Part shown: positions 43,042 to 59,864 of the stretch, one piece after another
How positions within the stretch are numbered: position 1 is the stretch's first letter
How the letters are laid out: the number at the start of each line of letters is the position of its first letter
Virus record (IMG/VR): IMGVR_UViG_3300012943_000001
Coordinates: 103,743 to 167,742 of that record
DNA length: 64,000 nt
Direction: 5' to 3' (one strand)
DNA from: a virus
Lineage: Duplodnaviria > Heunggongvirae > Uroviricota > Caudoviricetes
Notes under the pieces: model-generated
What the model was told of the DNA's origin: nothing
Seen by the model: only the letters and a program-made list of their open reading frames with translations
The model's database searches: none
Translations under genes and position numbers: made by a program

Positions 43042-44154
43042 ATGAAAATCGTCCTCTCAGATATCGACCCAGAGTCTTTCATGGTTCATCCGCACGAGAT
43101 TGCGGGTGAGACCTGCTATCTGGTTCAGCCTATCCATATCGGTGCAAAGTGGACCAAATCCAACTTGCACCAACGGTCCTCCGTGTGGAACGCTCAGGGC
43201 GAACTCGTTTCCGCTTCCTTCAAGAAATTCTTCAATTGGGCAGAGCAGCCAGACCTTGCATACACTCCTTTCTCCCTGACGGCGAACGGTGGATGTGAGT
43301 TGATTGAGAAAATCGACGGTTCTACTCTTATCGTTTCGAGGTATAAGGGCCAGACTATCATCCGTACTCGTGGTACAACCGACGCCTCTAAACTCGACAA
43401 CGGTCATGAAATCGAGTGGTTGAAAGACAAGTATCCTCGTGCGTTCAAGTTCCCAGATAAAGATGGGAATGACTACGAGACCGCACCGTACTCATTGATT
43501 TATGAGTGGGTATCTCCAGAGAATAAAATCGTATTGAATTATGGTGAAGACCCAGACATTTATTTGACTGCGGTTATCAACCATGACACCTATACACTTT
43601 GGCCTCAAGACGAAGTAGATGTTCTCGCAACCCTTCTTCTAGTGAAACGTCCAGCTCGCTATAACTTCGCGTCCGTGGCAGAAATGCTTGCGGCTGTCGA
43701 AGACCTAAAGGGCAAGGAAGGTCTCTGCGTCTACTGTAACAAGGGTCAAGATATCCGTAAGGTTAAGTCCGCATGGTATCTCGCGTTGCACCGTATGAAG
43801 ACGGAGTTTGGTTCGTACGAGCGTGTAGTAGACTTCTACTTCACGATGAACAAGCCAACCTATCAGGAATACTACCAGTTCATTGTAGATAACTACGATT
43901 TCGAATTGGCAGAGCAGTGCCGTGGTCATATCTCAAAGGTATGCGACGGCATGAAAGAGGTTGCCGTTCTGATTGCGGCTATGACCGAAAAGGTTGAACC
44001 ACTCCGTACGAAGTCCCGCAAGGATGCAGCCGCAGTAATTCTTCAAGCTTATGGCTTGACAAATCGCTCAGGCATGGCATTCTCCATCCTCGACAACAAG
44101 CCACTCAAGGTAGACGACTACAAAAAACTCCTGTACCAAGTAACGAAGGACTAA
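43042..44154 (+). CDS. ATP-dependent RNA/DNA ligase-family nucleotidyltransferase (Rnl-like)
   Basis: Motif I EKIDGS, motif IV EGLCVY, motif V RKVKS. Confidence 0.6.
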   Translation: MKIVLSDIDPESFMVHPHEIAGETCYLVQPIHIGAKWTKSNLHQRSSVWNAQGELVSASFKKFFNWAEQPDLAYTPFSLTANGGCELIEKIDGSTLIVSRYKGQTIIRTRGTTDASKLDNGHEIEWLKDKYPRAFKFPDKDGNDYETAPYSLIYEWVSPENKIVLNYGEDPDIYLTAVINHDTYTLWPQDEVDVLATLLLVKRPARYNFASVAEMLAAVEDLKGKEGLCVYCNKGQDIRKVKSAWYLALHRMKTEFGSYERVVDFYFTMNKPTYQEYYQFIVDNYDFELAEQCRGHISKVCDGMKEVAVLIAAMTEKVEPLRTKSRKDAAAVILQAYGLTNRSGMAFSILDNKPLKVDDYKKLLYQVTKD

Positions 44155-44155
44155 A

Positions 44156-44479
44156 ATGATTCCCGACAAGCTCCTTAATCTCAGCTATACCAAGCACGCG
44201 ATTAGGGAAGCTTGTTGCGAACGTTTTGGTAGTATAGAGCATCGTCCCAAGAATTTTATAAAGGTGGGTTGCAAGGCGGTGACCGAAAGTGCAGAGAAGC
44301 CTAACGTTATCAAAGCTACCTATATCTATGACGACTGGCGAGATGTCATTTTAGTCATAGACACCATAACTAAAACCGTAATTACAAACTACCTCAAACC
44401 CGCCCAAAACAAAGGCGTATTCAAAGGTCGATTTCGAATTCAGCCAAAGCATGAGCTACAAACTTTTTCTCGACGATGA
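44156..44479 (+). CDS. hypothetical protein
   Basis: 107 aa. Confidence 0.45.
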   Translation: MIPDKLLNLSYTKHAIREACCERFGSIEHRPKNFIKVGCKAVTESAEKPNVIKATYIYDDWRDVILVIDTITKTVITNYLKPAQNKGVFKGRFRIQPKHELQTFSRR

Positions 44480-44813
44480 ACGCATTCCTCAAAAAGTTTT
44501 TTGGGTTCCGCTTCCACTAGGCCCTTGGGTAATTGTCCGTTCTTACAACGAGTTCGTAGAGCACATCACAAAGAACGGTCTACCTGAGTTCATCTCTTTT
44601 GACCACGATTTATCCTTCGAAGACCAGAACGTTGGGGGAAAATCCCCAGACGAATACAAGGAAAAGACCGGGATGCACTGTGCTCACTGGCTGGTTAACT
44701 TTTGCCTTGACAATAACCTCAAGTGTCCTAACTTCACGGTCCACAGTATGAATCCAGTTGGTGCCAGAAACATCCGCTGCCTCCTCCAAGACTTTATCAT
44801 CTCACAAGAATGA
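44451..44813 (+). CDS. hypothetical protein
   Basis: 120 aa. Confidence 0.45.
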   Translation: MSYKLFLDDERIPQKVFWVPLPLGPWVIVRSYNEFVEHITKNGLPEFISFDHDLSFEDQNVGGKSPDEYKEKTGMHCAHWLVNFCLDNNLKCPNFTVHSMNPVGARNIRCLLQDFIISQE

Positions 44814-45262
44814 CGCTTTCAAATCTAGCTTTCAAACTCGCCGTGTTCTACCACGAGGGACAGACGCGTGAAAACGGTGTACCGTATATCACTCACCCTA
44901 TCGCCGTGGCAGAGATTGCCGTCGAATCAGTTGGCAACCTCTATTCTGAGGAAGTCATCGACATCATCAAAGCAATCGCTGACCTCCACGACGTTTTAGA
45001 AGACTGCGAAAAGAAGGGTGCGAGTGTCCAGTCTCTCAAGGAAAGCTTTAAGGGCTTCGCCAGAGCTGACGACGTAATCGACGCCGTAGTTTGCCTCACG
45101 AAAGTTGCGGGCGAATCATATTTCGTATATCTACAACGTGTCAAAGCTAACGAGTTTGCCAGAATCGTCAAGCTCGCAGACCTCCAACATAACCTCGGCG
45201 ACCTGCCTCCGGGCAAACGCCGAGACAAGTATCTCCTCGCTCAGTATTTCCTCCTCAACTAA
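44810..45262 (+). CDS. small alarmone hydrolase (RelA/SpoT HD domain, Mesh1-like)
   Basis: FYHEGQTRENGVPYITHP and LHDVLEDC match (p)ppGpp hydrolase HD motifs; 150 aa. Confidence 0.7.
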   Translation: MTLSNLAFKLAVFYHEGQTRENGVPYITHPIAVAEIAVESVGNLYSEEVIDIIKAIADLHDVLEDCEKKGASVQSLKESFKGFARADDVIDAVVCLTKVAGESYFVYLQRVKANEFARIVKLADLQHNLGDLPPGKRRDKYLLAQYFLLN

Positions 45263-45263
45263 A

Positions 45264-45938
45264 ATGAAGATTCCAAAGTTCGATACAGTTAAGACGAAGA
45301 TTTTCTTCGGAAGCGACTTCCACTTGTCGCACAAGCAGCCATTCATTTGGCAGGCACGTGGCTTCAATTCGATTGAGGAGCACGCTAATTTCATCATTGA
45401 CGAGACGAACAAGGTTGTTGGTGAAGACGACATCCTGTTTTACTTGGGCGATTTCTCGCTCAACTCGACGCCTGACGAGACGCGTGCATACTTCCGTCGA
45501 TTCAAGACGAAGCACATCTATTACATTTGGGGCAACCACGAGTCCAACACTTGGGCTATCTATCAGGACGCAATCCGGGAGAAGTTCAAGGGTCTTCCAT
45601 TCGTGCCTCCAGAGGTTTATCATTTCACATGGGAGAACGTGACGTTCTTTGGTAAGAGCCTTATGGTTAATATCAATGGACAAATCGTAATCCTATCGCA
45701 CTTCGCCCATTACATTTGGGATACGATGCAGCACGGTGCGTGGAATATTTGCGGCCATAGTCATGGCAACTGTGCGGAGCTTGTACCAGAGGCGGCATTT
45801 GGTAAGGTTCTAGACGTTGGCGTGGATGTCGCCGTAAAGCTCAACGCAAGTCCTGTCGTATCGTTTGAAGAGGTGGAGGAAATCCTCTACAAGAAGGCGA
45901 TTCAAGTTCGAGACCATCACAATAAGCAGACAACATGA
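45264..45938 (+). CDS. calcineurin-like metallophosphoesterase (polynucleotide 3'-phosphatase candidate)
   Basis: GDFHL, GDF, GNHE motifs; start at the internal ATG immediately after the upstream stop. Confidence 0.7.
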   Translation: MKIPKFDTVKTKIFFGSDFHLSHKQPFIWQARGFNSIEEHANFIIDETNKVVGEDDILFYLGDFSLNSTPDETRAYFRRFKTKHIYYIWGNHESNTWAIYQDAIREKFKGLPFVPPEVYHFTWENVTFFGKSLMVNINGQIVILSHFAHYIWDTMQHGAWNICGHSHGNCAELVPEAAFGKVLDVGVDVAVKLNASPVVSFEEVEEILYKKAIQVRDHHNKQTT

Positions 45939-46414
45939 TTTCAGAGTTCCATATGTTAGTTGGTATCGTTGGCTCTGGCAAGAGCACGTTATGCAAGAAG
46001 TTACTTGTAGATAAGCAAGCGACTCTTGTCAGCTCTGACGATATACGCCTAGAGGTTTGTGGCAACATGACAGACCAATCCAAGAATGGCTTAATCTTTA
46101 CAAAGATTATTCCTGAGAGGATTAAGGCTGGACTGAAGGCGGGCAACGTTGTGTACGACGCAACGAACTATAACCGCAAGTCTCGCCGTGAGTGGTTGAC
46201 TCTAGCCAAGTCTCTAGGTGCGAGGACGGTAGTTCATCAAATGCTAACCCCATTCGATGAGTGCCGTCGTCGTAATGCCGCACGCCTAGAGCGTGTTGTG
46301 CCTGACTTCGTAATCGACAAGATGGTTGCGGGTTGGGAAGCTCCAGACATGAACATCGAGAAAATCGACGAAATCATCCTAGTATCTGAGAGTGGCGTTG
46401 CGAAAGTTGCTTGA
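45935..46414 (+). CDS. pnk: polynucleotide 5'-kinase domain protein (T4 Pnk kinase-like)
   Basis: P-loop GIVGSGKST; VVYDATNYNRKSRREW resembles the T4 Pnk DxTN...R segment. Confidence 0.7.
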   Translation: MISEFHMLVGIVGSGKSTLCKKLLVDKQATLVSSDDIRLEVCGNMTDQSKNGLIFTKIIPERIKAGLKAGNVVYDATNYNRKSRREWLTLAKSLGARTVVHQMLTPFDECRRRNAARLERVVPDFVIDKMVAGWEAPDMNIEKIDEIILVSESGVAKVA

Positions 46415-46442
46415 CTTTCCCGCCATTCTCGGTACTCTTAAC
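46411..46442 (+). promoter_or_regulatory. conserved CTTGACTTTCC-type promoter
   Basis: gcTTGACTttcccgccattctcggTACTCTtaa. Confidence 0.45.
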
Positions 46443-46465
46443 GTTTTACCTAATCAAATCTTACT

Positions 46466-46933
46466 ATGTCCAAAATCAATCTCGCCAAAGCCCTCAAAGT
46501 CAAAAATTCCCTTATCAGCGAAATCAATCGCTCCAAGGCTGTCTTTGCTCGTGAAAACTCCCGTAAGGAAGGCTCCACGTCCAAGGTTGACCGCGAACAG
46601 CTCTGGGACCAAATCTCCGTCAAAACCCAGCAGTTGGTCAAGCTGAAGGGGCAAATCGCCGCCGCGAACATTGCCATCTATCCAACGCTTGCCCTTATGG
46701 AGGAGGCTAAGTCTGCAATCACGTTCCTACAGCAGCTCAATACTACAGACGGAAAGGTCGTTGAGCATAGCCGCTATGGTACGGGTCCAAACCTTGAGAC
46801 GAACTTCTCCGCCTTCATCACGCAAGATGGGGTGGATAAGAGGGTCAACGAGTTTCAGAAGATTATCGAAGACGCACAAGATGCGGTGGACGCCTATAAC
46901 GCAACCACATTCATCGAAGTCTCATTCGTCTAA
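46466..46933 (+). CDS. hypothetical protein
   Basis: 155 aa after the promoter at 46411. Confidence 0.5.
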   Translation: MSKINLAKALKVKNSLISEINRSKAVFARENSRKEGSTSKVDREQLWDQISVKTQQLVKLKGQIAAANIAIYPTLALMEEAKSAITFLQQLNTTDGKVVEHSRYGTGPNLETNFSAFITQDGVDKRVNEFQKIIEDAQDAVDAYNATTFIEVSFV

Positions 46934-47151
46934 CACTTTGGGCCGCTGGTTCGGCGTCTAACAGGCACGGGAGTATTTTAATGACGAAAGTCATTGGAAA
47001 TCTATCTATAACGATAATGATAAGGAGTAAAGGCTTCGGCCCTAATAAGGTTCAACGCTCATGAACTCAAAAGTTATCAATTAAAGATTAAGAATCAAAA
47101 CTCTGTTTCCCTCACGTTTGTTATTCGCCGGATTAGCGGTTCATTTATTTT

Positions 47152-47304
47152 ATGATAAGATTCGCCATCGCGTTCTTATTGGGAGCGGCAGTCGCACTTT
47201 GGTTCCCCTTGTTTATCAAGGCGGTCCTCTGCCTCATTGGGTACGTAATCGTTGCGTCCTTAGCTACTCTCCTCTTCTTGGCTATCGTGGGTAGCAAGGC
47301 TTGA
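47152..47304 (+). CDS. small hydrophobic peptide (~50 aa, two TM)
   Basis: Manual ORF MIRFAIAFLLGAAVALWFPLF...; not in the ORF track (<60 aa). Confidence 0.35.
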   Translation: MIRFAIAFLLGAAVALWFPLFIKAVLCLIGYVIVASLATLLFLAIVGSKA

Positions 47305-47332
47305 CTTTACTGAAACGGCTACTAGAATGAAT
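47301..47332 (+). promoter_or_regulatory. conserved CTTGACTTTACTGAAACG-type promoter (-10 TAGAAT)
   Basis: gcTTGACTttactgaaacggctacTAGAATgaa. Confidence 0.55.
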
Positions 47333-47355
47333 TTCATGATTAACTCCCAACCCTA

Positions 47356-47649
47356 ATGGCTATTGTCAAAACAACCCGCTATTACCTGAATGTTTTTGGA
47401 AGCATTCAGAGAGACTTCAAGACTACAGCGTCCGAAGGCTCCAACAATAGAGACGACGTATTCGAATATACATTCCCAAACGACGAACTATTCTTTCAGC
47501 ATTTTTATCGACTCAATATCAAAACCGCTCAGGGCAAACTTCTAAAGGGTAAAACCTTGGTGGGGGTCTATACAAGAAGGGGTCTGGAAAAGAAAGACCG
47601 CCCTCGCCCCCGAATGAACAGCCAAAAATTCAGAGAACGCGACGAATGA
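47356..47649 (+). CDS. hypothetical protein
   Basis: 97 aa after the promoter at 47301. Confidence 0.45.
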   Translation: MAIVKTTRYYLNVFGSIQRDFKTTASEGSNNRDDVFEYTFPNDELFFQHFYRLNIKTAQGKLLKGKTLVGVYTRRGLEKKDRPRPRMNSQKFRERDE

Positions 47650-47858
47650 AAAAAGCATTTACATTAGTGGAAATCATGGTCGTCGTTTGTATCATAGGGG
47701 TTGTAGCCGCTATGGCAATTCCCGCCTTTCAAAAGCTCAAAGAGAGTAAAGCGAATGCAGATAAACGCAGGTCTCCACACAGAGTCGAACAAGTACAATC
47801 CTATACTCCTCCCGAGGAAATCATAATCAACGGTTATAAATATCGCCTAGTAAGGTAA
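47646..47858 (+). CDS. type IV pilin-like (prepilin N-terminal methylation motif) small protein
   Basis: KKAFTLVEIMVVVCIIGVVAAMAIP is a canonical class III signal / pilin N-terminus. Confidence 0.5.
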   Translation: MKKAFTLVEIMVVVCIIGVVAAMAIPAFQKLKESKANADKRRSPHRVEQVQSYTPPEEIIINGYKYRLVR

Positions 47859-47860
47859 CA

Positions 47861-48889
47861 ATGGCAGTGGCAAGAAAATTAGCGTCCATCCAAAAAATTC
47901 TAGACATACTTCCCCATGCAAACGCGGACACGTTAGAGATTGCCCGCGTCTTGGGTTGGAAGGTTTGCGTCAAGAAGGGCGAGTTCAAAGTAGGAGACTA
48001 CTGTGTCTACATGGAGATTGACTCTATGTTGCCGCAGAAACCTGAGTTTGAATTCCTTCGTTCCAAAGGATTCAGGATTAAAACCGTCAGGCTCCGTGGA
48101 GAAGTGTCTCAGGGCATCGCATTCCCACTATCTATCCTTGATGGATATAAGGTTCACGACCAGCATCAGGAGATACCTTACTTAGAAGATTTGGATGTCA
48201 CTGAGCTTATTGGCGTCGTCAAGTACGAGCCCGCAATCCACTTCGCTATTGGCGGAGAGATTAAGGGTCATTTCCCAGAGTTTTTGAAGAAGACGGACGA
48301 GACCCGCATCCAAGCCTTTCCTCGTCTCCTAGACCGCTACAAGGGCGAACGCTTCTACGTTACAGAGAAGTTGGACGGCTCTTCCATGACCGTATATTTC
48401 AAAGACGGTATGTTTGGTATTTGCAGTCGTAACTACGAACTTAGAGAGACTGAAGGTAACGCTCTATGGGCAACCGCAAAGAGGCTCCACCTACCCGAGA
48501 AACTTACGGCTTTTGGTCGCAATATTGCGATTCAGGGTGAGCTTATCGGTCCGGGCATCCAAGGTAACAAATACAAGGTCAAAGAACATCAGTTCCGTCC
48601 GTTCAACGCTATCAACATCAATGAGGCGAAACGTATTGGAGCTGTCGAACTGTTCTCTTTGTGCTCTGCACTAGACCTAGAGCCCGTTCCTGTAATCGAC
48701 TTCTGGTTCGTTCTTAACCATACTGTAGACGATATAGTGTCGTACGCAGAGGGTAAGAGTGCTTTGAATTCAAACACGGAAAGAGAGGGTGTCGTCATTC
48801 GTTACATCGAAGAGAAGTACGACGAAGACATTGGAGACTTGAGCTTCAAAGTCATCAGCCCTAACTTCCTGCTTAAATCAGACGAGTAA
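47861..48889 (+). CDS. RNA ligase, DRB0094/Rnl5 family
   Basis: N-terminal OB LASIQKI...ADTLEIARVLGWKVCVKKGEFKVGDYCVYMEIDS; motif I EKLDGSS. Confidence 0.75.
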   Translation: MAVARKLASIQKILDILPHANADTLEIARVLGWKVCVKKGEFKVGDYCVYMEIDSMLPQKPEFEFLRSKGFRIKTVRLRGEVSQGIAFPLSILDGYKVHDQHQEIPYLEDLDVTELIGVVKYEPAIHFAIGGEIKGHFPEFLKKTDETRIQAFPRLLDRYKGERFYVTEKLDGSSMTVYFKDGMFGICSRNYELRETEGNALWATAKRLHLPEKLTAFGRNIAIQGELIGPGIQGNKYKVKEHQFRPFNAININEAKRIGAVELFSLCSALDLEPVPVIDFWFVLNHTVDDIVSYAEGKSALNSNTEREGVVIRYIEEKYDEDIGDLSFKVISPNFLLKSDE

Positions 48890-52657: not shown

Positions 52658-52733
52658 GGGGATGTAGCTCAGTTGGTAGAGCACCTGCTTTGCAAGCAGA
52701 TTGTCGCAGGTTCGACCCCTGTCATCTCCACCA
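52658..52733 (+). tRNA. tRNA-Ala(TGC)
   Basis: GGGGATGTAGCTCAG...TTCGACC...CTCCACCA; loop TTTGCAA; G3:U70. Confidence 0.8.
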
Positions 52734-52782
52734 TTTCATTGACGCGGTTGTTACTACACGGGTTAGTCAGGAAGTAACATTT

Positions 52783-52858
52783 GGGGGCAAAGCATTGCTG
52801 GCAATGCGTCTGTCTTGCACACAGAAAACTGCGGGTTCGACTCCCGCTGTCTCCACCA
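52783..52858 (+). tRNA. tRNA-Ala(TGC)-like, atypical D-arm
   Basis: GGGGGCA...loop CTTGCAC...TTCGACT...TGTCTCCACCA; G3:U70 present. Confidence 0.5.
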
Positions 52859-52992
52859 ATTTCGTATCAGTGAGTTCAATAGCAAAAGCCGCAAGGTGAA
52901 GTAACTATTATTCATAAGCTCTGTCTGAGCAAGTCGGGTTAAAATCCGAAAGCTGATACAAGCCCGCATATAGGTTGCGGGTGTTAATTTAT

Positions 52993-53067
52993 GGCCCGGT
53001 AGTTTAGAAGTTAGAATACCTGTCTTTCACACAGGAGATGAGGGAGCGTTACCCTCTCGGGCTACCA
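52993..53067 (+). tRNA. tRNA-Glu(TTC)-like, unusual T-loop
   Basis: Loop CTTTCAC; D-loop TAGAAGTTAG as in Glu; T-loop AGCGTTA non-canonical. Confidence 0.45.
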
Positions 53068-53150
53068 TTTATATGACGGCGTAGAGGTTCGGTATTACTA
53101 CGACTCGTAGATACCGTCATTAGCTTGAGATTAGATACCTCAAGCGTTAA

Positions 53151-53240
53151 GGAGAGGTGTCAGAGCGGTTTATTGAGTCTGTCTTGAAAACAGAAGGGTT
53201 GTAAAAGGCCCCGTGGGTTCAAATCCCACCCTCTCCTCCA
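53151..53240 (+). tRNA. tRNA-Ser(TGA), type II
   Basis: GGAGAGG...loop CTTGAAA...long variable arm...TTCAAAT...CCTCTCCTCCA. Confidence 0.75.
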
Positions 53241-53297
53241 TTTTTCTGTTGTGAATGTTCAGCGGGCCTAGCGACCCGCCTATAGAGTGAGCAATGG

Positions 53298-53323
53298 GAA
53301 GCAACTAGCGGGTTGCTTTTTGT
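53298..53323 (+). terminator. rho-independent terminator candidate inside the tRNA array
   Basis: GAAGCAACtagcggGTTGCTT + TTTTG. Confidence 0.5.
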
Positions 53324-53397
53324 GTCAGAAAGGGCACGATATAAAAGACGAATACGATGGAACGCGGTCGTCTCTAAATAATACGGAGTTCCACCAC

Positions 53398-53487
53398 GGA
53401 GAGTTGGGCGAGTGGTTTATGCCGAGACTTTGCTAAAGTCTTGCTGCCGAAAGGTGGCCGGGGGTTCGAATCCCTCATTCTCCGCCA
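53398..53487 (+). tRNA. tRNA-Ser(GCT), type II
   Basis: Loop TTGCTAA, long variable arm, TTCGAAT T-loop, CCA. Confidence 0.7.
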
Positions 53488-53491
53488 ATTT

Positions 53492-53567
53492 GGTTGTATA
53501 GTGTAAAGGTCGCATTGGTAGATTGTCAATCTACAGGTCGGGGTTCAACTTCCCCGTACAACCGCCA
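53492..53567 (+). tRNA. tRNA-Asp(GTC)
   Basis: Loop TTGTCAA; TTCAACT T-loop; ...CAACCGCCA. Confidence 0.7.
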
Positions 53568-53573
53568 ATTTAT

Positions 53574-53647
53574 GGTTCCATCGTTCAACGGATAGGACAG
53601 CATCCTTCTAAGTTGCATATGGGGGTTCGATTCCCTCTGGAACTACC
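53574..53647 (+). tRNA. tRNA-Arg(TCT)
   Basis: Loop CTTCTAA, stem GCATC/GTTGC (one U.U); TTCGATT. Confidence 0.65.
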
Positions 53648-53652
53648 ATTTA

Positions 53653-53728
53653 TAGAGTCATCGTTCAACGGATAGGACTTAAGTTTCCTAAACTTAGTAT
53701 CAGGGTTCGATTCCCTGTGACTCTACCA
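53653..53728 (+). tRNA. tRNA-Arg(CCT)
   Basis: Stem TAAGT/ACTTA, loop TTCCTAA; TTCGATT; ACCA. Confidence 0.7.
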
Positions 53729-53738
53729 TTCAGTTTAT

Positions 53739-53814
53739 GGACGATTAGCACAGCGGCTAATGCACCTGCTTTACACGCAGGCTACCGGGGGTTCGAGTCC
53801 GTCATCGTCTACCA
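53739..53814 (+). tRNA. tRNA-Val(TAC)
   Basis: Loop TTTACAC; TTCGAGT; ...CGTCTACCA. Confidence 0.7.
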
Positions 53815-53926
53815 TTTAGGTTTGCTCACCAGCCTTTGTAATAGTGAGTCTTTTGATGATTAAGGTGAAAATCATCCAGTATACATAGTGGATTATGTCA
53901 TCGTCTTCTTTACGATAAAAGAAAAT

Positions 53927-54001
53927 GGGTTGTAAGCATAGGTGGCGATGCTCTAGGCTCTTAACCTTGAGAACGGGGTTCGATTCCCCGACAACCCACC
54001 A
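53927..54001 (+). tRNA. tRNA-Lys(CTT)
   Basis: GGGTTGT...loop CTCTTAA...TTCGATT...ACAACCCACCA. Confidence 0.65.
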
Positions 54002-54005
54002 TTTT

Positions 54006-54078
54006 GACGCGTTAGCCAAGCGGCAAGGCGGCTCTCTGCAAAAGGGTCTAGACTGGTTCGACTCCAGTACGTGTCTCC
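54006..54078 (+). tRNA. tRNA-Cys(GCA)
   Basis: Loop CTGCAAA; GGTTCGACTCC; discriminator U + CCA as in Cys. Confidence 0.7.
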
Positions 54079-54125
54079 AATTATGAATTATAAGGAAAGA
54101 GAAAATAGAAACGCAGAATAGTTAT

Positions 54126-54199
54126 TGGCCTATGATGTAATGGTAGCGTCTTCGCTTGATAGGCGAATGGTTAGGGTTCGATTCCCTGTAGGCCAACCA
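54126..54199 (+). tRNA. tRNA-Ile(GAT)
   Basis: Stem TTCGC/GCGAA, loop TTGATAG; TTCGATT; ...GGCCAACCA. Confidence 0.65.
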
Positions 54200-54274
54200 G
54201 TTTATGACTCGACACCGTTGTGGCGAAAACCTTTTTGAAGGTTAATAACTCGCTCTTCGCTTTAGAGTCTCTTT

Positions 54275-54351
54275 GGAAATATAGCTCAACTGGTTAGAGC
54301 AGCATCCTTTTAAGTTGTTGGTTGTGGGTTCGAGTCCCGCTATTTCCACCA
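54275..54351 (+). tRNA. tRNA-Lys(TTT)
   Basis: GGAAATATAGCTCAACTGG...loop CTTTTAA...TTCGAGT...TATTTCCACCA. Confidence 0.7.
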
Positions 54352-54484
54352 ATTTCCGTTAGTAGTAACACCCCTATAATTAGACGAACCTTAAGTCATC
54401 GCTCTTTTTGAAGCTGGGACTACGTGTTTACTCGTAGTAAATAGTCTCGTGTGGAAACGAGTAGCTACGACGGAATTAGTTTAT

Positions 54485-54558
54485 GGACCTTTAGTGTAAT
54501 GTAGCACGAGAACCTTTGAAGTTCTCCAGTGTAGGTTCAAGTCCTACGGGGTCTGCCA
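54485..54558 (+). tRNA. tRNA-Gln(TTG)
   Basis: Stem AGAAC/GTTCT, loop CTTTGAA; discriminator G; TTCAAGT. Confidence 0.6.
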
Positions 54559-54563
54559 ATTTT

Positions 54564-54637
54564 GGGTTTATGGTGTAATGGCTGCACAGCGTCCTTTTAA
54601 GTCGTATGTCACGGTTCGAGTCCGTGTAGACCCACCA
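54564..54637 (+). tRNA. tRNA-Lys(TTT), second divergent copy
   Basis: Stem GCGTC/GTCGT (U.U), loop CTTTTAA; TTCGAGT; ACCA. Confidence 0.55.
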
Positions 54638-54643
54638 ATTTAT

Positions 54644-54718
54644 TGTTCTATTGTGTAATGGTTAGCACGGCATCCTTTGAAGTTGCTTGTCCTCGTTCGA
54701 ATCGAGGTAGAACAGCCA
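54644..54718 (+). tRNA. tRNA-Gln(TTG), second copy (U1:A72, G73)
   Basis: TGTTCTA...loop CTTTGAA...TTCGAAT...TAGAACAGCCA. Confidence 0.65.
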
Positions 54719-54813
54719 GTCTCCAACGGCGGGTAGGCCCGTCAAACAATATAGGAAGTCCTAACAAAACATATATCAGAAGGAGTAGGTGAAATCTTCT
54801 GAGCTTCCACTAT

Positions 54814-54888
54814 GCAAGTGTCGTCCAATGGATAGGACATCAGATTACGAATCTGAGAACGGGGGTTCGACTCCCTCCACTTGTACCA
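54814..54888 (+). tRNA. tRNA-Arg(ACG)
   Basis: Stem TCAGA/TCTGA, loop TTACGAA; TTCGACT; ACCA. Confidence 0.65.
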
Positions 54889-54894
54889 ATTTAT

Positions 54895-54970
54895 GGATAC
54901 GTGAGATAATGGAAGTCTGCTTGTCTTCGAAACAAGTTCTATGTAGGTTCGAGTCCTACCGTGTCCACCA
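54895..54970 (+). tRNA. tRNA-Arg(TCG)
   Basis: Stem CTTGT/ACAAG, loop CTTCGAA; TTCGAGT. Confidence 0.6.
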
Positions 54971-55114
54971 ATTTGCGGTCATACCGCAGCGTTTAGTAGT
55001 AATAGTTGCGAAGCAAAGTTCAATGCCGCATGTTAAAGTCAAAGTCTTCTTTGTAAAGATGATGAGCCCAGTACGGGTAATGTGCGAAACGTTTAAGCTA
55101 GACGTAGAATTTAT

Positions 55115-55209
55115 AGAGGGGTCGCATAGTTGGCCTAGTGCGTTCGCTTGGAAAGCGAATGGTCGGTTAAAAACCCGGCCCGCGAGTTCGAATCTCGCTC
55201 CCTCTGCCA
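55115..55209 (+). tRNA. tRNA-Ser(GGA), type II
   Basis: Loop TTGGAAA; long variable arm; TTCGAAT; ...CCCTCTGCCA. Confidence 0.65.
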
Positions 55210-55219
55210 AGTTTCTTAT

Positions 55220-55306
55220 GGAGATGACGCCGCAATTGGTAGCGGTATTCGGCTGTAAACCGAACGCCTTCGGGCACTGTGGGTTCGAATCCCTCCAGCT
55301 CCACCA
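55220..55306 (+). tRNA. tRNA-Tyr(GTA), type II
   Basis: Loop CTGTAAA; variable hairpin GCC-TTCG-GGC; one acceptor mismatch. Confidence 0.6.
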
Positions 55307-55311
55307 TTTAT

Positions 55312-55397
55312 GGGAGTCATGACAATCGGCTAGTCGCTTCGCTGTAAACGAAGTAACCCGCGAAGGGTGGCAGGTTCAATTCCTGCGGCTCCCACCA
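55312..55397 (+). tRNA. tRNA-Tyr(GTA), second divergent copy
   Basis: Stem CTTCG/CGAAG, loop CTGTAAA; variable ACCC-GCGA-AGGGT; TTCAATT. Confidence 0.6.
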
Positions 55398-55404
55398 AGT
55401 TTAT

Positions 55405-55479
55405 AGGGTGTTCGTCCAATTGGTAGGACAACTGTCTCCAAAATAGTGAATCTCGGTTCAAGTCCGAGGCACCCTGCCA
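55405..55479 (+). tRNA. tRNA-Trp(CCA)
   Basis: Loop CTCCAAA; discriminator G; TTCAAGT. Confidence 0.65.
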
Positions 55480-55558
55480 CCTTCCGACGCCCGTCTATAG
55501 ACTCGTCTATAGCTTGCGAAGAAGTTTGTGCGTTTGGGTTCGCCTTAAAAAGCCCTAT

Positions 55559-55633
55559 GGGATGGTAGCTCCAATGTAGAGCAGATGCCTGAAGAGCATC
55601 GTGTTGTCGGTTCAAGTCCGACCCTTCCCACCA
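55559..55633 (+). tRNA. tRNA-Phe(GAA)
   Basis: Stem GATGC/GCATC, loop CTGAAGA; TTCAAGT; ACCA. Confidence 0.65.
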
Positions 55634-55639
55634 ATTTAT

Positions 55640-55716
55640 TATGTCGAACGAACCATCGGTTGGACGACCTGACTGTTAATCAGGTGAAGCAAGTTCGAAC
55701 CTTGCCGACATAGCCA
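55640..55716 (+). tRNA. tRNA-Asn(GTT)-like, atypical D-arm
   Basis: Stem CCTGA/TCAGG, loop CTGTTAA; TTCGAAC; GCCA end; D-stem poorly paired. Confidence 0.4.
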
Positions 55717-55722
55717 TTTTAT

Positions 55723-55799
55723 TCCGCGTTAGCTCAGTTGGCAGTAGCGAGTGTCTGTTAAACACTAGGTCGTACGTTCGAACCGTACACGCGGAGCCA
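55723..55799 (+). tRNA. tRNA-Asn(GTT)
   Basis: TCCGCGTTAGCTCAGTTGG...loop CTGTTAA...TTCGAAC...ACGCGGAGCCA. Confidence 0.75.
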
Positions 55800-55839
55800 A
55801 ATTTCAGTTGAAAAATTAACGAGTCCTGTTAATATCAGG

Positions 55840-56391
55840 ATGTCGGTTCAATCAGATAGGGTCAAACTTTGGAGAAAACAAACCAAGCTACGTATCGTTC
55901 AGGCGATGGGTGGAAAGTGTCAGTGTTGCGGATACAACAAATGTGTAGACGCCTTAGAGATTCATCACCTAGACCCAGAGGAGAAGTCCTTTACGGTCTC
56001 TGCATTAAGAGCGAATCACGGAAGCTGGGACTCCATAGTGAAAGAACTTAGAAAGTGTGTAATGCTTTGCGGCATCTGTCACGCAGAGTACCACGCGGGC
56101 ATGAGAGAAATTCCCGCAGACGCCCAAAGATTCAACGAAGAATACGTTGACTACAAAGCGTTGGGCAAAGAAAAGAGTTTCTGCCCAATTTGTAAAGAAG
56201 AGAAAGAGGAGTTCAACAAAACATGCTCGTACAAGTGTGCGGCTGTATACAAGGCTCCAATAGATTGGTCTAAGTACGACTTGAAGAAAATGTACGTGGA
56301 CGAAAAGAAAACTCAAACAGAGATTGGCACAATAGTTGGCCTGTCTGATGTTGCGGTTAGTAAGCGACTTAAAAAGTTGGGTCTCAAATAA
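55840..56391 (+). CDS. HNH homing-type endonuclease
   Basis: CQCCGYNKCVDALEIHHLDP...CGICHAEYH; inserted between tRNA genes. Confidence 0.7.
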   Translation: MSVQSDRVKLWRKQTKLRIVQAMGGKCQCCGYNKCVDALEIHHLDPEEKSFTVSALRANHGSWDSIVKELRKCVMLCGICHAEYHAGMREIPADAQRFNEEYVDYKALGKEKSFCPICKEEKEEFNKTCSYKCAAVYKAPIDWSKYDLKKMYVDEKKTQTEIGTIVGLSDVAVSKRLKKLGLK

Positions 56392-56398
56392 TTTTTAT

Positions 56399-56477
56399 AC
56401 GAACGTAGTGCTAGTCTGGTTAAGCGACTCGATTTGGAATCGAGATTTCGCGGGTTCAAATCCCGCCGTTCGTACCA
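56399..56477 (+). tRNA. tRNA-Pro(TGG)
   Basis: Stem CTCGA/TCGAG, loop TTTGGAA; TTCAAAT; ...CGTTCGTACCA. Confidence 0.55.
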
Positions 56478-56496
56478 TTTGTTAGTGTTAGTATAT

Positions 56497-56574
56497 CCGT
56501 CATTAGCGTAATCTGGCTATCGCGTTTCGTTTGGGGCGAAGAGACTGCTGGTTCGAATCCAGCATGGCGGACCA
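56497..56574 (+). tRNA. tRNA-Pro(TGG), second copy
   Basis: Loop TTTGGGG; TTCGAAT; ...ATGGCGGACCA; long D-loop. Confidence 0.5.
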
Positions 56575-56579
56575 TTTAT

Positions 56580-56652
56580 TCACTCGTAGTTTAGTATAAA
56601 ATTCCCTCGCTTTAGAGGGTGACACGCGGCTTATAACCCGTCGAGTGAGCCA
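56580..56652 (+). tRNA. tRNA-like gene with a 6-nt anticodon loop (GCTTTA)
   Basis: Perfect acceptor TCACTCG/CGAGTGA + GCCA; stem CCCTC/GAGGG closes a 6-nt loop; no GG in the D-loop. Confidence 0.35.
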
Positions 56653-56717
56653 TTCTTGCAAGACCGTGAAGCTTGAGGTTGCAACCTTGAGTGAGTGACG
56701 GAAAGCGAAACGTACGT

Positions 56718-56790
56718 GGTGAAGTAACCCAGTGGAAGAGGTAGGCCCGTTAAAGGGCCTCAAGCGTTGGTTCGAATCCAACCTTTGCCG
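56718..56790 (+). tRNA. tRNA-like gene with a 6-nt anticodon loop (GTTAAA), no encoded CCA
   Basis: Acceptor GGTGAAG/CTTTGCC (2 G.U); stem GGCCC/GGGCC; T-arm GTTGG-TTCGAAT-CCAAC. Confidence 0.35.
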
Positions 56791-56875
56791 TATGCGTACT
56801 GAGTAGCATAACTTTATCTAGTGGTTCGCCACTTAGAACCTTCAGGTCTCCATGAAGCAAAACCGGAGACATTAT

Positions 56876-56952
56876 GGGCGTGTGGCGTAATTGGTAAACG
56901 CGTTTGACTCAAAATCAAAATTCTGTCGGTTCGAGTCCGACCTCGCCTACCA
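56876..56952 (+). tRNA. tRNA with anticodon CAA (Leu-like decoding) but a class I body
   Basis: Stem TTTGA/TCAAA, loop CTCAAAA; TTCGAGT; ...CTCGCCTACCA; one acceptor mismatch. Confidence 0.45.
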
Positions 56953-56956
56953 CTTT

Positions 56957-57087
56957 GGGGAGTTAGTTAAAAACTAATCATCCACTTCGACATTTCTCTG
57001 GCAACAGTAGCTATGAAGAGGATTACATCGGAAAAACAAATGCCTGTAAAGCGTTAATAGGAGGTTCGAATCCTCCACTCCCCACCA
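56957..57087 (+). tRNA. elongated tRNA-like gene (~131 nt) with an internal insertion
   Basis: GGGGAGT...(approx 70-nt insert)...GGAGGTTCGAATCCTCC ACTCCCC A CCA; perfect 7-bp acceptor. Confidence 0.35.
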
Positions 57088-57150
57088 ATTTACTTTTCAA
57101 CGCTCGAAGTCCTACGGGACAAGGGCCGAAAAGAAACAGAAAGGATAACA

Positions 57151-57237
57151 ATGGAATTCGTAACTATTGCTATCGCTGCTTATGCGGTTATCGGTTTGCT
57201 ATATCAAATGGCAAAAGCGTACCCGGCAGTTAAATAA
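57151..57237 (+). CDS. small hydrophobic peptide (28 aa)
   Basis: RBS AGGATAACA-ATG; MEFVTIAIAAYAVIGLLYQMAKAYPAVK; followed by an intrinsic terminator. Confidence 0.3.
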   Translation: MEFVTIAIAAYAVIGLLYQMAKAYPAVK

Positions 57238-57246
57238 GAAAACAAA

Positions 57247-57278
57247 TGGGGGCGGCTCTGTAATGGGGTCGCCCCTTT
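57247..57278 (+). terminator. rho-independent terminator after the small peptide ORF
   Basis: GGGGGCGGCtctgtaatggggtCGCCCC + TTTCTATT. Confidence 0.5.
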
Positions 57279-57282
57279 CTAT

Positions 57283-57358
57283 TGATGAATGGTGTAACTG
57301 GCAACACGCTTGATTCTGACTCAAGAGACTCTAGGTTCAACTCCTAGTTCATCAGCCA
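57283..57358 (+). tRNA. tRNA-Gln(CTG) (U1:A72, G73)
   Basis: TGATGAA...stem CTTGA/TCAAG, loop TTCTGAC...TTCAACT...TTCATCAGCCA. Confidence 0.7.
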
Positions 57359-57364
57359 ATTTAT

Positions 57365-57442
57365 GGACGCGTAGCTCAGTTATGTAAGAGCATCGGCTTG
57401 AAACACCGAGGGTCGGCGACTCAGCATCGCCCACGTCCACCA
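57365..57442 (+). tRNA. tRNA-Phe(GAA)-like, non-canonical T-loop
   Basis: GGACGCGTAGCTCAG...loop TTGAAAC; T-loop CTCAGCA; ACCA. Confidence 0.4.
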
Positions 57443-57448
57443 GTTTAT

Positions 57449-57563
57449 GGGCGTCTAGTGTTGAATCCGTAACTCGTACGGAAGTTGAAATACAAGGAAG
57501 CACATCGCGTAGTTGAAGAACGATGACCGCGAAGGTACGGGTTCAAATCCCGAACGTCCACCA
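57449..57563 (+). tRNA. elongated tRNA-like gene (~115 nt)
   Basis: GGGCGTC...CGTAC[~55 nt]GTACG...GGGTTCAAATCCCG AACGTCC A CCA. Confidence 0.3.
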
Positions 57564-57709
57564 CTTTTAGCGACCGCACCAGCTTACGTGAAGATTCGTA
57601 CATTTCGAAGCGTGGACGCACGTGTAGGACCGCAGGCCCCTATATCTTTCGGTATAGAGATTTCCCTGAGACGGGCCGCTAAACAATTTCCAGTAGTCAC
57701 AGTCAGACA

Positions 57710-57781
57710 TTCATCGTAGCTTAATGGTTAAGCAATTGTCTCAAACACAGTATATTGTAGGTTCAAATCCTACCGATACCG
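57710..57781 (+). tRNA. tRNA-like (loop CTCAAAC), weak acceptor, no CCA
   Basis: D-arm GCTT-AATGGTTA-AAGC; T-arm GTAGG-TTCAAAT-CCTAC; acceptor only 4 bp. Confidence 0.3.
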
Positions 57782-57823
57782 CAAGGTATTACCTGTCTGG
57801 CAAATTTTCTCTGGAAAATCTTT

Positions 57824-57898
57824 GGTTGTATAGCTCAATGGTTGAGCAATCTCTTGATAAGGGATAGGTTGTCGGTTCGAACCCGGCTGCAACCACCA
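57824..57898 (+). tRNA. tRNA-Ile(GAT), second copy
   Basis: GGTTGTATAGCTCAATGG...loop TTGATAA...TTCGAAC...TGCAACCACCA. Confidence 0.7.
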
Positions 57899-57943
57899 AT
57901 TCTCTGTTGGCTTGACGGAGCTAAAAATATTGAGCCTTCTTAT

Positions 57944-58021
57944 GGTGTCGTAGGTGTAATTGGCTTTGCATACTAGACTGTGAATCTGGGGGAACGAATT
58001 CGAATTTCGTACGACACACCA
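57944..58021 (+). tRNA. tRNA-His(GTG) with encoded G-1
   Basis: G-GTGTCGT...loop CTGTGAA...TTCGAAT...ACGACACACCA. Confidence 0.7.
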
Positions 58022-58026
58022 TTTAT

Positions 58027-58103
58027 GGCCGTTTAGCCCAATTGGCAGAGGCGTCTGCCTTAGAAGCAGAATGTTGAGGGTTCGAGTCCCTTGGCGGCTA
58101 CCA
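58027..58103 (+). tRNA. tRNA with anticodon TAG (Leu-like decoding), short variable arm
   Basis: Stem TCTGC/GCAGA, loop CTTAGAA; TTCGAGT; ...GGCGGCTACCA. Confidence 0.5.
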
Positions 58104-58267
58104 CTTTAAGGTACTAAAATGTTTTTACTACCTACAGATACTAAAACTATGGAGGATGCTATGACAATGCTAAACGCGAAAGAGAGCAAGCACATCACGG
58201 GCTTGACAATCGGAAGTTAAAGAGAGTTAGGGTTAGAGAACACCATCATAGAGATTACGATTTCTAT

Positions 58268-58624
58268 TTGAGTTATGGAGATATGCTTAAACGCTTTCCC
58301 GTAACTAAGCAAGGCGACCCAGAAGGCTACGACCCAATTCAATGCTACGTCCTAATCGACTCGCATGGAGAACGGAGCGGGCCTCACCCTTGCAATGACC
58401 CTGACACTTTAGACAAAGTTTTAAGAGGCAAAGAGAACGTAAACCTGCAAATCAAAATGTGGGTTGAGTCAGTAATGGACAGCACTCTTTGGCCTGAAGA
58501 AGTGAAAGAGTATACGAAAGATTATCCTGAGTGGGTATTCAAATCGTTCCTCAATCAATTGCATAGAGAGATAGTTAAGAAGATAGGATTCGTTCCTACC
58601 TTTATGAAAGTTTCGCCGCAGTGA
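58268..58624 (+). CDS. hypothetical protein
   Basis: 118-aa ORF (TTG start) between tRNA genes. Confidence 0.45.
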   Translation: MSYGDMLKRFPVTKQGDPEGYDPIQCYVLIDSHGERSGPHPCNDPDTLDKVLRGKENVNLQIKMWVESVMDSTLWPEEVKEYTKDYPEWVFKSFLNQLHREIVKKIGFVPTFMKVSPQ

Positions 58625-58635
58625 TGCGGCTTTGT

Positions 58636-58712
58636 GGCCGGATGACGGAATTGGCATACGTATTGGTCTAAGAAGCCAAGTTTTGTGGGTTCGACTCCCA
58701 CTTCGGCTACCA
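58636..58712 (+). tRNA. tRNA, anticodon read as AAG (uncertain)
   Basis: Stem TTGGT/GCCAA, loop CTAAGAA; TTCGACT; ...TTCGGCTACCA. Confidence 0.4.
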
Positions 58713-58717
58713 CTTTT

Positions 58718-58809
58718 GGGAGTGTAATGTAATGTAGCATCGCACGTTTTATAAACGTGGTGCAGTAGATAACTGCCGAGTATGGGTTCAAGTCCCTTCG
58801 CTCCTACCA
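58718..58809 (+). tRNA. type II tRNA with anticodon read as TAT (unusual)
   Basis: Stem CACGT/ACGTG, loop TTTATAA; variable hairpin GCAGT-AGATA-ACTGC; TTCAAGT; ACCA. Confidence 0.4.
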
Positions 58810-58810
58810 T

Positions 58811-58953
58811 GAGAGTGAGGTGTAATGGTTGCACGTTGACGATAGCAGGCGAAAATATGAGTGAAGCTGGCTAATAACCAACCGCTCCTCAAAGCATAGC
58901 TGTAAGTCTTGAAACATGTCAAAGGAATGGGTCCGAATCCCACGCTCTCTCCA
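58811..58953 (+). tRNA. elongated tRNA-like gene (~143 nt)
   Basis: GAGAGTG...(approx 80-nt insert)...TGGGTCCGAATCCCA CGCTCTC T CCA. Confidence 0.3.
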
Positions 58954-59047
58954 ATTTTGTGAGGGTAGGATAGGTTGTTGCAAATGATAATGTCTTTAGG
59001 TAACTTGCCGCGTAAAGAGTCCTATCTCGAATCACAATCAATTTTAT

Positions 59048-59122
59048 GGCGATATCTTCTAATGGCTAGGAAGGCTGGTTCTCAACCAGATAATCGGGGT
59101 TCGATTCCCCGTATCGCTACCA
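59048..59122 (+). tRNA. tRNA-Glu(CTC)-like
   Basis: GGCGATA...loop TTCTCAA (4-bp stem)...TTCGATT...TATCGCTACCA. Confidence 0.45.
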
Positions 59123-59337
59123 ATTTATGGCGAAGTGCGAGAAAGCTTTAAGTCGCGGTTAAAGTGCAGTGCTTAATAAGCCACTTACGTCACCAATTTA
59201 TAAATACACTCTAGTATCAAATTTCCAGACAGCATAACGAGCGGTTCGACTCCGCCCGAGCATCCCTAAGAAGATGCCGAGGGAACGCTGGAGAACATTT
59301 CTAACTTGAAAAATAGTTAGAGACGGATATAATTCGG

Positions 59338-59721: not shown

Positions 59722-59864
59722 TTTCAGTAGTTACGTAGAGACTTTCATCGTCTATTAAACGAGTGTTTGTGAGGTTCGAATCCCACTCGCCCCACCATTT
59801 ATGGGGCGATACGCAAATGGTAAAGCGGCTAAAATCGTCTCTGCAATTTTTCTCTGAAAACTAA

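Follow-up and report, generated by a model that had tools for sequence, protein, structure and literature searches.

A 64,000-nucleotide stretch of phage DNA (positions 103,743 to 167,742 of IMG/VR virus record IMGVR_UViG_3300012943_000001, referred to here as the window), which comes from a metagenomic contig of 205,482 bp (ENA ERZ27256383 k141_2352669), encodes a 70-amino-acid (aa) protein that joins the N-terminal helix of a type IV pilin to a short, conserved hairpin. This protein, termed here the mini-pilin (MKKAFTLVEIMVVVCIIGVVAAMAIPAFQKLKESKANADKRRSPHRVEQVQSYTPPEEIIINGYKYRLVR), is the product of a real, conserved gene, and the explanation to which most weight is given, with about an even chance of its being correct, is that it imitates, in truncated form, the host's major type IV pilin or pseudopilin, altering or blocking pili. 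Alignments and database searches show that the mini-pilin keeps residues specific to pilins, resembles the pilins of one bacterial clade and, in the data examined, occurs only in phages.

Sequence and predicted structure of the mini-pilin

The open reading frame (ORF) that encodes the mini-pilin had been singled out in an original prediction, made from the DNA letters alone, as a phage-encoded pseudopilin gene of 70 codons at 47646-47858 on the + strand; coordinates, strand and length are all borne out, and the same ORF is present among the gene calls of the public collection for the source contig. The profile check that had been suggested at that stage, with Pfam N_methyl (PF07963), was run and gave 25.0 bits, above the gathering cut-off of 21.2, and NCBIfam TIGR02532 gave 26.8 bits (cut-off 16.3). 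The mini-pilin falls below the cut-off of every named pilin or pseudopilin equivalog of NCBIfam, including GspG TIGR01710 (28.5 against 88.85), PilA_Myxo (34.7 against 400) and ComGC (30.5 against 75). By its scores and core residues it belongs to the class III signal peptide/N_methyl domain superfamily, from the canon of which it departs in the residue at -1 and in the length of its leader. A six-frame regular-expression scan of the window yielded no second credible prepilin-type N-terminus, only one spurious 30-aa ORF with a TTG start.

Bacterial class III leaders have been described as hydrophilic, 6-26 residues long and invariably closed by a Gly that is critical for processing, and Glu5 as required for pilin assembly and dispensable for processing (PMC4471445). 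The cleavage site had been described as a textbook one, a description that holds for Phe+1, Thr+2, Glu+5, Gly+14, Pro+22 and the hydrophobic tract of approximately 21 residues (FTLVEIMVVVCIIGVVAAMAIP; maximum Kyte-Doolittle hydropathy 2.88, residues 7-25), all of which are canonical, but not for the leader, which is unusually short at four residues and ends in Ala, a deviation from the canon rather than a ground for exclusion.

An AlphaFold2 model built on a 29-member family alignment (mean predicted local distance difference test score, pLDDT, 79.7) predicts a single helix at residues 7-42 (pLDDT 87-98), followed by a flexible linker and a beta-hairpin with strands at 58-61 and 64-67 (pLDDT 63-71); the topology was unchanged in a shallower run. 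The hairpin is a feature that had no place in the original prediction, whose notion of a (pseudo)pilin also fails where a complete subunit is concerned. A complete pilin fold combines an alpha1 helix of ~50 residues with a globular beta-meander head, whereas the mature mini-pilin has only 66 residues, and both AlphaFold2 and hhalign indicate that alpha1-C and the whole of the head are missing. Longer members of the family, of 97-105 aa, align by hhalign to the bacterial pilin over the whole of alpha1 (58 columns, probability 99.8), and profile-profile comparison indicates that the window copy lacks the alpha1-C half that these orthologues retain.

A derivation of the hairpin from the strands that end the bacterial pilin found no support, for although MAFFT juxtaposes the two, hhalign gives nothing past alpha1. 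A Foldseek search of the model against PDB and BFVD returned nothing at E <= 0.001, and a likeness to T4 fibritin/foldon, which also combines a helix and a hairpin, was discarded as not significant (TM-score 0.50 normalised to the query, E ~4).

Conservation, synteny and selection

Eight diverged copies of the gene, that of the window included, occupy one common slot, in which an ORF of ~100 codons is followed by the mini-pilin gene and then by a PHA02142-type RNA ligase gene. Four of them are short forms, namely those of the window (70 aa), of locus L163 (72 aa; GCA_040384425.1, 222-kb contig), of L101 (75 aa) and of L164 (78 aa; GCA_040384045.1, 218-kb contig); the long forms are those of L100 (97 aa), L002 (99 aa; JGI, 208-kb contig), L097 (103 aa) and L162 (105 aa). 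The TGA stop codon of the upstream ORF overlaps the mini-pilin ATG (as ATGA) in 8/8 syntenic copies, and the RNA ligase starts 0-5 nt past the mini-pilin stop codon. The flanking proteins of the relatives are 52-78% identical to their window counterparts, the range for the RNA ligase being 67-78%.

Selection was estimated by comparison among three copies of the mini-pilin gene. Synonymous sites are near saturation, with a proportion of synonymous differences (pS) of 0.66-0.83, and the corresponding non-synonymous proportion (pN) is 0.11-0.15 across the first 33 codons; in the last 17 codons, pN is 0.22-0.32 against a pS of 0.68-0.78. Where dS could be estimated, dN/dS is ~0.07 (alpha1-N) and ~0.15. 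Because the syntenic orthologues show such purifying selection, a chance ORF, a pseudogene and a gene-calling artefact are excluded. Four lineages have short forms, of 70-78 aa, none of which has lost either conserved end, so that helix and hairpin appear to represent the functional minimum of the protein.

The mini-pilin family and its distribution

Family members were retrieved by an exhaustive HMMER search of 1.84 billion representative sequences, with a profile made from the three closest orthologues. With only the tail as query, a word-indexed search of 5.8 billion clusters had retrieved just these three orthologues, the wider family requiring the exhaustive profile search; a 1154-aa protein with nine tail matches (P0235) was set aside as a low-complexity DGYRYK repeat protein matched by chance. 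At least 29 representative sequences have the mini-pilin architecture, and 29 members of 70-130 aa were aligned. Within alpha1-N (mature numbering), Thr2, Glu5 and Pro22 never vary, and Phe1, Gly14, Ala18 and Met19 are almost constant; the middle part is a variable, charged linker; and the C-terminus consists of the module (I/V)x(I/V)(D/N/E)GxxY(R/K)L(V/I), usually followed by P/E, in which Gly63 and Tyr66 are invariant across the 29 and Leu68 is nearly so. In six members the module is present twice. Ala occupies position -1 in 16/29 members, as against 19/221 of the other prepilins retrieved, the remaining 13/29 having Gly, and leaders (counted through -1) have a median length of 5 residues in the family versus 8 in the other prepilins.

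All family contexts inspected are phage-like. A second type of phage (L160/L161; 23 contigs, up to 47 kb) carries a family gene followed by another N_methyl ORF of 43 aa, at loci with neither the 97-aa partner nor the RNA ligase of the window. In prokaryotes, the family was sought with a degenerate DNA pattern that encodes [IV]I[DN]GKxY[RK]LV and covers ~6/29 family members; among 185,579 species-representative genomes it gave 45 matches, each of which lies either in a non-coding frame or in a hairpin inside an unrelated protein, and none of which joins the module to a prepilin N-terminus. Within the limited sensitivity of this pattern, the family is absent from bacterial genomes. Several PHROG families of short N_methyl proteins (phrog_11263, 13280, 10597, 27437 and 11596), as well as phrog_3433 ("pilin"), are each matched by 24-29 of the 29 members, but such matches are limited to residues ~2-40 and no PHROG or Pfam model spans the linker or the hairpin, so that the family as such is unrepresented in either collection. 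Retrieval by way of the neighbouring gene gave no loci with a single RNA ligase as query, and 80 distant loci with an RNA ligase alignment, near only two of which (L012 and L021) are there pilin-like ORFs, which are unrelated.

Other large viral contigs also carry prepilin-type ORFs in tandem. At L160 (10001-10457) the family member precedes the 43-aa N_methyl ORF mentioned above (MNIKNNKGFTLVELFFALFIIACIGGGLTLFYLIVKALLKFIG), at L089 (3001-3667) two ORFs of 126 and 92 aa are adjacent, and at L092 (1048-3578) there are four, of 95-331 aa; a minimal leader of the form MKK(A/G) recurs in many of these ORFs.

A motif similar to that of the hairpin, ...(V/I)I(D/N)GKxY(K/R)LV(P/E)..., is found at the C-terminus of unrelated viral proteins on IMG/VR contigs. 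It ends five tandem MORN-like repeat paralogues (L102, 8682-10830, - strand), a protein with peptidoglycan-binding and HExxH metallopeptidase regions (L104, 10734-10762), a lipoprotein (L109, 1119-1147, - strand) and a 54-aa protein with a single transmembrane (TM) segment (L114, 2537-2565), and a similar motif stands at the start of some proteins (L103, L108, L110, L111 and L112). The hairpin could be either a portable module or a product of convergence.

The bacterial pilin resembled and the probable host

The first 33 residues of the mini-pilin are 72-79% identical to those of many stand-alone bacterial pilins of ~113-119 aa, and every match that carries the name of an organism belongs to the Verrucomicrobiota (Coraliomargarita, Cerasicoccus, Lentimonas, Oceanipulchritudo, Opitutales, Puniceicoccales). 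At the three bacterial loci inspected, a stand-alone pilin gene is followed by glycosyltransferase, methyltransferase or PMT_2 genes and has a long gap upstream, an arrangement that would be typical of major pilin loci with pilin-glycosylation genes. The bacterial homologues, of ~114 aa, reach no NCBIfam equivalog cut-off.

Over the 29 codons that start at Phe1, aa identity is 69-93% between phage and bacterial pilins and 55-93% between phage copies, each phage alpha1-N being at least as near to a bacterial pilin as to the other phage copies, while nucleotide identity is only 67-80%. This combination of high likeness at the aa level with low nucleotide identity does not fit a recent transfer; an old capture kept host-like by selection fits these comparisons. 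Taken together, the pilin matches suggest that the host is probably a verrucomicrobium of the Opitutales/Puniceicoccales type.

Proposed mechanism and alternative explanations

The explanation by mimicry can be laid out as a series of steps. The mini-pilin would be co-produced with the 97-aa protein encoded directly upstream, within a gene block for replication, nucleotide metabolism and RNA repair, and its class III signal sequence would place it in the inner membrane, its tail reaching into the periplasm, as is expected from pilin biology (PMC4471445). The host-like alpha1-N, with its Phe1, Glu5, Gly14 and Pro22, would then be recognised by the prepilin peptidase, the assembly platform and the pilin pool. 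Since it has neither alpha1-C nor a globular head, the mini-pilin cannot act as a normal subunit, and it would either poison or cap assembly or dope the filament with head-less subunits, with the result that the pili of infected cells would be altered or lost. The most likely benefit would be that further pilus-dependent phages are blocked from adsorbing, or that pilus or secretion functions are shut down. The C-terminal hairpin, which may be the functional end of the mini-pilin, probably adds a periplasmic contact. The roles initially put forward, namely interference with type IV pili (T4P) or with the type II secretion system (T2SS), superinfection exclusion and incorporation into pili, match by analogy the precedent of the phage proteins P-FimU and P-PilA (PMC12952977).

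Several points weigh against this explanation. The MKKA leader departs from the canonical 6-26 residues with Gly (PMC4471445) and, since Gly at -1 has been described as critical, processing of the mini-pilin may be poor or absent. NCBIfam does not separate T4P PilA, T2SS GspG and Com-type subunits for the bacterial homologues, and the host prediction has a single source, the pilin similarity of the mini-pilin gene. Finally, a similar hairpin is carried by viral proteins whose anchors are not pilin-like, so that the functional part could be the tail and not the helix.

The last of these points is the core of a competing explanation, possible although on the whole unlikely, in which the pilin-like helix would do no more than bring the hairpin to the periplasm and hold it there. 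Like small membrane proteins of the T4 type, the hairpin would then bind a target other than the pilus, for instance peptidoglycan, a secretin, or some factor of lysis or of the envelope. Within the family, the hairpin represents a second conserved element, which is sometimes duplicated; similar hairpins are found on proteins with other export signals (the single-TM protein, the lipoprotein and the metallopeptidase of L114, L109 and L104) and at the end of five tandem MORN-like paralogues (L102); and the mini-pilin gene of L162 adjoins rIIA/rIIB-like genes. However, a generic anchor needs neither an invariant Glu5, Pro22 and Thr2 nor a 69-93% likeness to one pilin clade, and since these three residues are invariant in all 29 members, the constraint on alpha1-N is far above what a membrane anchor would need. 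Other carriers of the hairpin look cytoplasmic (DnaA-C-like in L112, MORN-like in L102), the hairpin may be convergent, and the same pattern arises by chance inside unrelated bacterial proteins.

Somewhat further down the scale, and distinctly improbable, is the suggestion that the mini-pilin is a decoy for the prepilin peptidase, a slowly cleaved or uncleavable substrate mimic that would block the maturation of all pilins and pseudopilins, in both T4P and T2SS. The enrichment of Ala at -1 and the shorter leaders of the family speak for it, as does the description of Gly at -1 as absolutely critical for processing (PMC4471445), but 13/29 members retain this Gly. The suggestion is further weakened by the fact that a bacterial pilin of the same clade (P0007, Lentimonas) also carries Ala at -1, so that the local peptidase may accept it, and, Glu5 being dispensable for processing, the conservation of Glu5, Gly14 and Pro22 exceeds the known needs of peptidase recognition. 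A combination of these ideas, which is a slightly longer shot, would make the mini-pilin a two-part inhibitor, whose helix delivers it to the peptidase or the platform, whose Ala leader stalls there as a poor substrate, and whose hairpin is a portable periplasmic docking module. If so, the hairpin would be shared with a metallopeptidase, a lipoprotein and a single-TM mini-protein for one envelope target, such as a secretin or the alignment complex, and phages would have in it a new, transferable "address tag" for the machinery behind type IV filaments.

It is very unlikely that the mini-pilin is a constructive component, built into or priming pili that are useful to phage or host, for instance by changing adhesion or by serving a partner virus as receptor, as is the case for the full pilins of the archaeal virus SNJ2. 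Assembly of viral pilins by the machinery of the host has been documented (SNJ2, PMC12426801), and the PilA-N of Geobacter shows that head-less pilins can form filaments with a partner; yet there is no head-domain partner beside the mini-pilin gene, the window copy lacks even alpha1-C, and the context suggests a large, lytic-type phage and not a provirus. The notion that the ORF has no function, being either what is left of a host pilin gene that was captured and is now in decay, or an artefact of gene calling, which the short, head-less product, ~30 residues below some orthologues, might evoke, is effectively refuted by comparative evidence of selection and synteny: there are eight syntenic copies with near-saturated synonymous and low non-synonymous change, the ATGA coupling has been kept, as has the close junction with the gene downstream, the short forms keep both ends, and at least 29 sequences share the architecture.

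Comparison with known systems

Among the systems compared, the mini-pilin most resembles in function, as far as analogy allows, the truncated PilA-like protein P-PilA, which consists of approximately the N-terminal 60 residues and is encoded by six virulent Pseudomonas phages; for this protein, either incorporation without the sites that phages bind or inhibition of assembly has been proposed (PMC12952977). Both proteins are phage-encoded, with a short basic leader, alpha1-N only, a charged tail and no globular head, and the 59-aa ORF of phage vB_PaeM_PAO1_Ab11 has the layout of the mini-pilin gene, including a 4-nt overlap with the gene upstream. The Pseudomonas P-PilA, unlike the mini-pilin family, has no (I/V)x(I/V)(D/N)GxxY(R/K)LV hairpin and the tails are unrelated; the clade mimicked is that of Pseudomonas rather than of the Verrucomicrobiota; and it is the mini-pilin family that is enriched in Ala at -1 and keeps a fixed place beside an RNA ligase gene. 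In tblastn, the mini-pilin is 31-33% identical to Pseudomonas phage proteins (matches H37 and H41; E = 0.3-1) over the generic N-terminus only and, with similarity so confined and the tails unrelated, the resemblance is analogous, not orthologous.

P-FimU, encoded by F10-like Pseudomonas prophages, is incorporated at the pilus tip and blocks the adsorption of competing phages (PMC12952977; Sztanko et al., Cell Rep 2026). Like the mini-pilin, it is a phage-encoded look-alike of a type IV pilus subunit, and dependence on the host machinery is predicted for the mini-pilin as well; F10-like phages are also among the weak tblastn matches of the latter (H25-H33). P-FimU, however, is a full-length minor pilin with a globular domain, functional in twitching, located at the pilus tip and expressed from a prophage, whereas the mini-pilin is head-less and lies on a jumbo-phage contig of ~205 kb. 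In the archaeal provirus SNJ2, PilA1 and PilA2 have class III signal peptides and hijack the host assembly machinery (PMC12426801), but these are complete pilins of a temperate virus that form the dominant surface filaments, while the mini-pilin is truncated. ORFs with an N-methylation motif have been on record in T4-like Aeromonas phages since 2006 (PMC1524935); these, and the short N_methyl proteins of PHROG, share with the mini-pilin their small size and a prepilin N-terminus.

The best matches of the mini-pilin, by sequence, among solved structures are to Geobacter PilA-N ("geopilin domain 1"; 9EGP, 7TGG, 2M7G/6VK9), with E = 1e-7 to 8e-6. This bacterial protein is likewise reduced to an alpha1 helix and a short tail (61-90 aa), although, unlike the mini-pilin, it has no C-terminal hairpin. 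Being naturally head-less, it indicates that a pilin consisting of the helix only is structurally viable. Geobacter PilA-N pairs with a separately encoded head protein, PilA-C; no complementary head-domain gene adjoins that of the mini-pilin, the neighbours of which encode the 97-aa protein and the RNA ligase.

Genomic context

That the gene is phage-encoded, as originally supposed, is upheld by the 205-kb contig, with its many PHROG matches, a PolC/DnaE-like polymerase, two RNA ligases and 42-45 tRNAs, and by the rIIA/rIIB-like genes of relatives. Within the window, all sizeable ORFs are on the + strand, the polymerase is accompanied by an HNH endonuclease, one of the many PHROG matches is annotated as a virion structural protein, and no capsid or terminase gene was found. 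Megablast of 15 kb around the mini-pilin gene against deposited phages matched tRNA-Ala genes only, and the polymerase is <=32% identical to that of any deposited phage, from which it follows that no annotated close relative exists. On the basis of gene content, it is concluded that the window represents the part of an uncultivated jumbo phage genome of ~205 kb that serves replication, nucleotide metabolism and RNA repair. The features of the window are listed in the following table.

Features of the window, with those of the mini-pilin gene first
Feature	Position	Strand	Remarks
Mini-pilin gene, 70 aa + stop codon	47646..47858	+	Putative phage-encoded truncated type IV pilin mimic
Leader peptide MKKA	47646..47657	+	Read from sequence; predicted prepilin-peptidase cleavage Ala4/Phe5
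alpha1-N segment, mature residues 1-28, FTLVEIMVVVCIIGVVAAMAIPAFQKLK	47658..47741	+	Part resembling bacterial pilin; helix in AlphaFold2 model
Variable charged linker, residues 33-53	47742..47804	+	From alignments; ~30 residues shorter than in 97-105-aa orthologues; pLDDT 59-63
Conserved C-terminal module TPPEEIIINGYKYRLVR	47805..47855	+	Predicted beta-hairpin
Upstream 97-aa ORF	47356..47649	+	TGA overlaps mini-pilin ATG; predicted to be translationally coupled
PHA02142/Rnl-type RNA ligase	47861..48889	+	Pfam PF21189 + PF09414, phrog_968; synteny anchor
Sigma-70-like promoter match TTGACT-16-TAGAAT	47301..47328	+	10/12 positions; ahead of two-gene unit; consensus may not be that of the host
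T4 Rnl1-like RNA ligase	43042-44154	+	
cREC_REC protein	44451-44813	+	
AAA_33/KTI12-like kinase	45935-46414	+	
NADAR/YAcAr (SLOG) protein	152-1024	+	
PfkB-family kinase	1021-1836	+	
Spermidine synthase, 495 aa	6096-7583	+	
Lon-like ATP-dependent protease	8393-10879	+	
705-aa protein, sub-threshold protein-kinase match	23049-25166	+	
NAD synthetase	26827-28545	+	
NUDIX hydrolase	29551-30081	+	

The 97-aa ORF has 22 homologues, all unannotated, and every one that was traced to a contig lies within the mini-pilin phage group; it has no match in Pfam, PHROG or PDB, and its product has no pilin features. The RNA ligase downstream is probably unrelated to the mini-pilin in function. Promoter matches in the region number 18, versus a shuffle expectation of 13.6 +/- 4.9, and are not above background, nor is the outcome of a terminator scan.

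Directly 5' of the unit formed by the 97-aa ORF and the mini-pilin gene are 422 nt with no called gene (46934-47355). An IMPDH-like gene, of which the window shows no detectable trace, occupies this position in L002, L162, L163 and L164; a unique, strongly hydrophobic ORF of 50 aa (MIRFAIAFLLGAAVALWFPLFIKAVLCLIGYVIVASLATLLFLAIVGSKA) is located at 47152-47304. In L162, genes for an rIIA-like protein (732 aa, HATPase_c_3) and an rIIB-like protein (342 aa, PF26926) stand directly 5' of the pair (6434-9697), and the window has no rIIA/rIIB-like genes at the corresponding position.

An RNA-repair-like cluster extends over 43042-48889 (+), just upstream of the tRNA array, and in relatives additionally includes HD and metallophosphatase proteins; from its gene content, it resembles a tRNA repair module, possibly of use in counter-defence against anticodon nucleases. 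The array itself (52658-63857, +) holds 42 tRNA genes according to ARAGORN and 44 tRNA matches according to Rfam, with extra tRNAs given by Rfam only at 57365-57439, 57713-57777 and 57945-58018. ARAGORN reports one "tRNA-???" with an odd anticodon loop (56717-56791), and the tRNA-Ile(tat) at 58718-58809, 92 nt in length, may contain an insertion or intron. The annotated genes at 152-10879 and 23049-30081 are, judging from their matches, of metabolic and host-takeover type.

Significance

Mimicry of pilins by phages has already been established experimentally, with P-FimU (PMC12952977), and the existence of such a gene is unsurprising to specialists. What is new is the family itself, with its hairpin, the enrichment of Ala at -1 together with a minimal leader, the strict coupling to a 97-aa partner restricted to one phage group, the natural range from long to short members, and a place in jumbo phages whose hosts are probably Verrucomicrobiota. 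The anti-phage defence role of P-FimU has been shown only recently, and to such phage-encoded look-alikes of pilus subunits the mini-pilins add a well-conserved, head-less example that is defined by sequence and comes from jumbo phages of a probable host phylum that is poorly studied. From the pilin similarity, Opitutales/Puniceicoccales can also be predicted as hosts of a group of uncultivated phages of ~205-222 kb. The presence of two separable modules and of natural long and short forms permits clean experiments, in which helix can be compared with hairpin and Gly with Ala at -1. Should the mini-pilin block pili or the prepilin peptidase, type IV filament systems could be targeted with it as a compact genetic tool.

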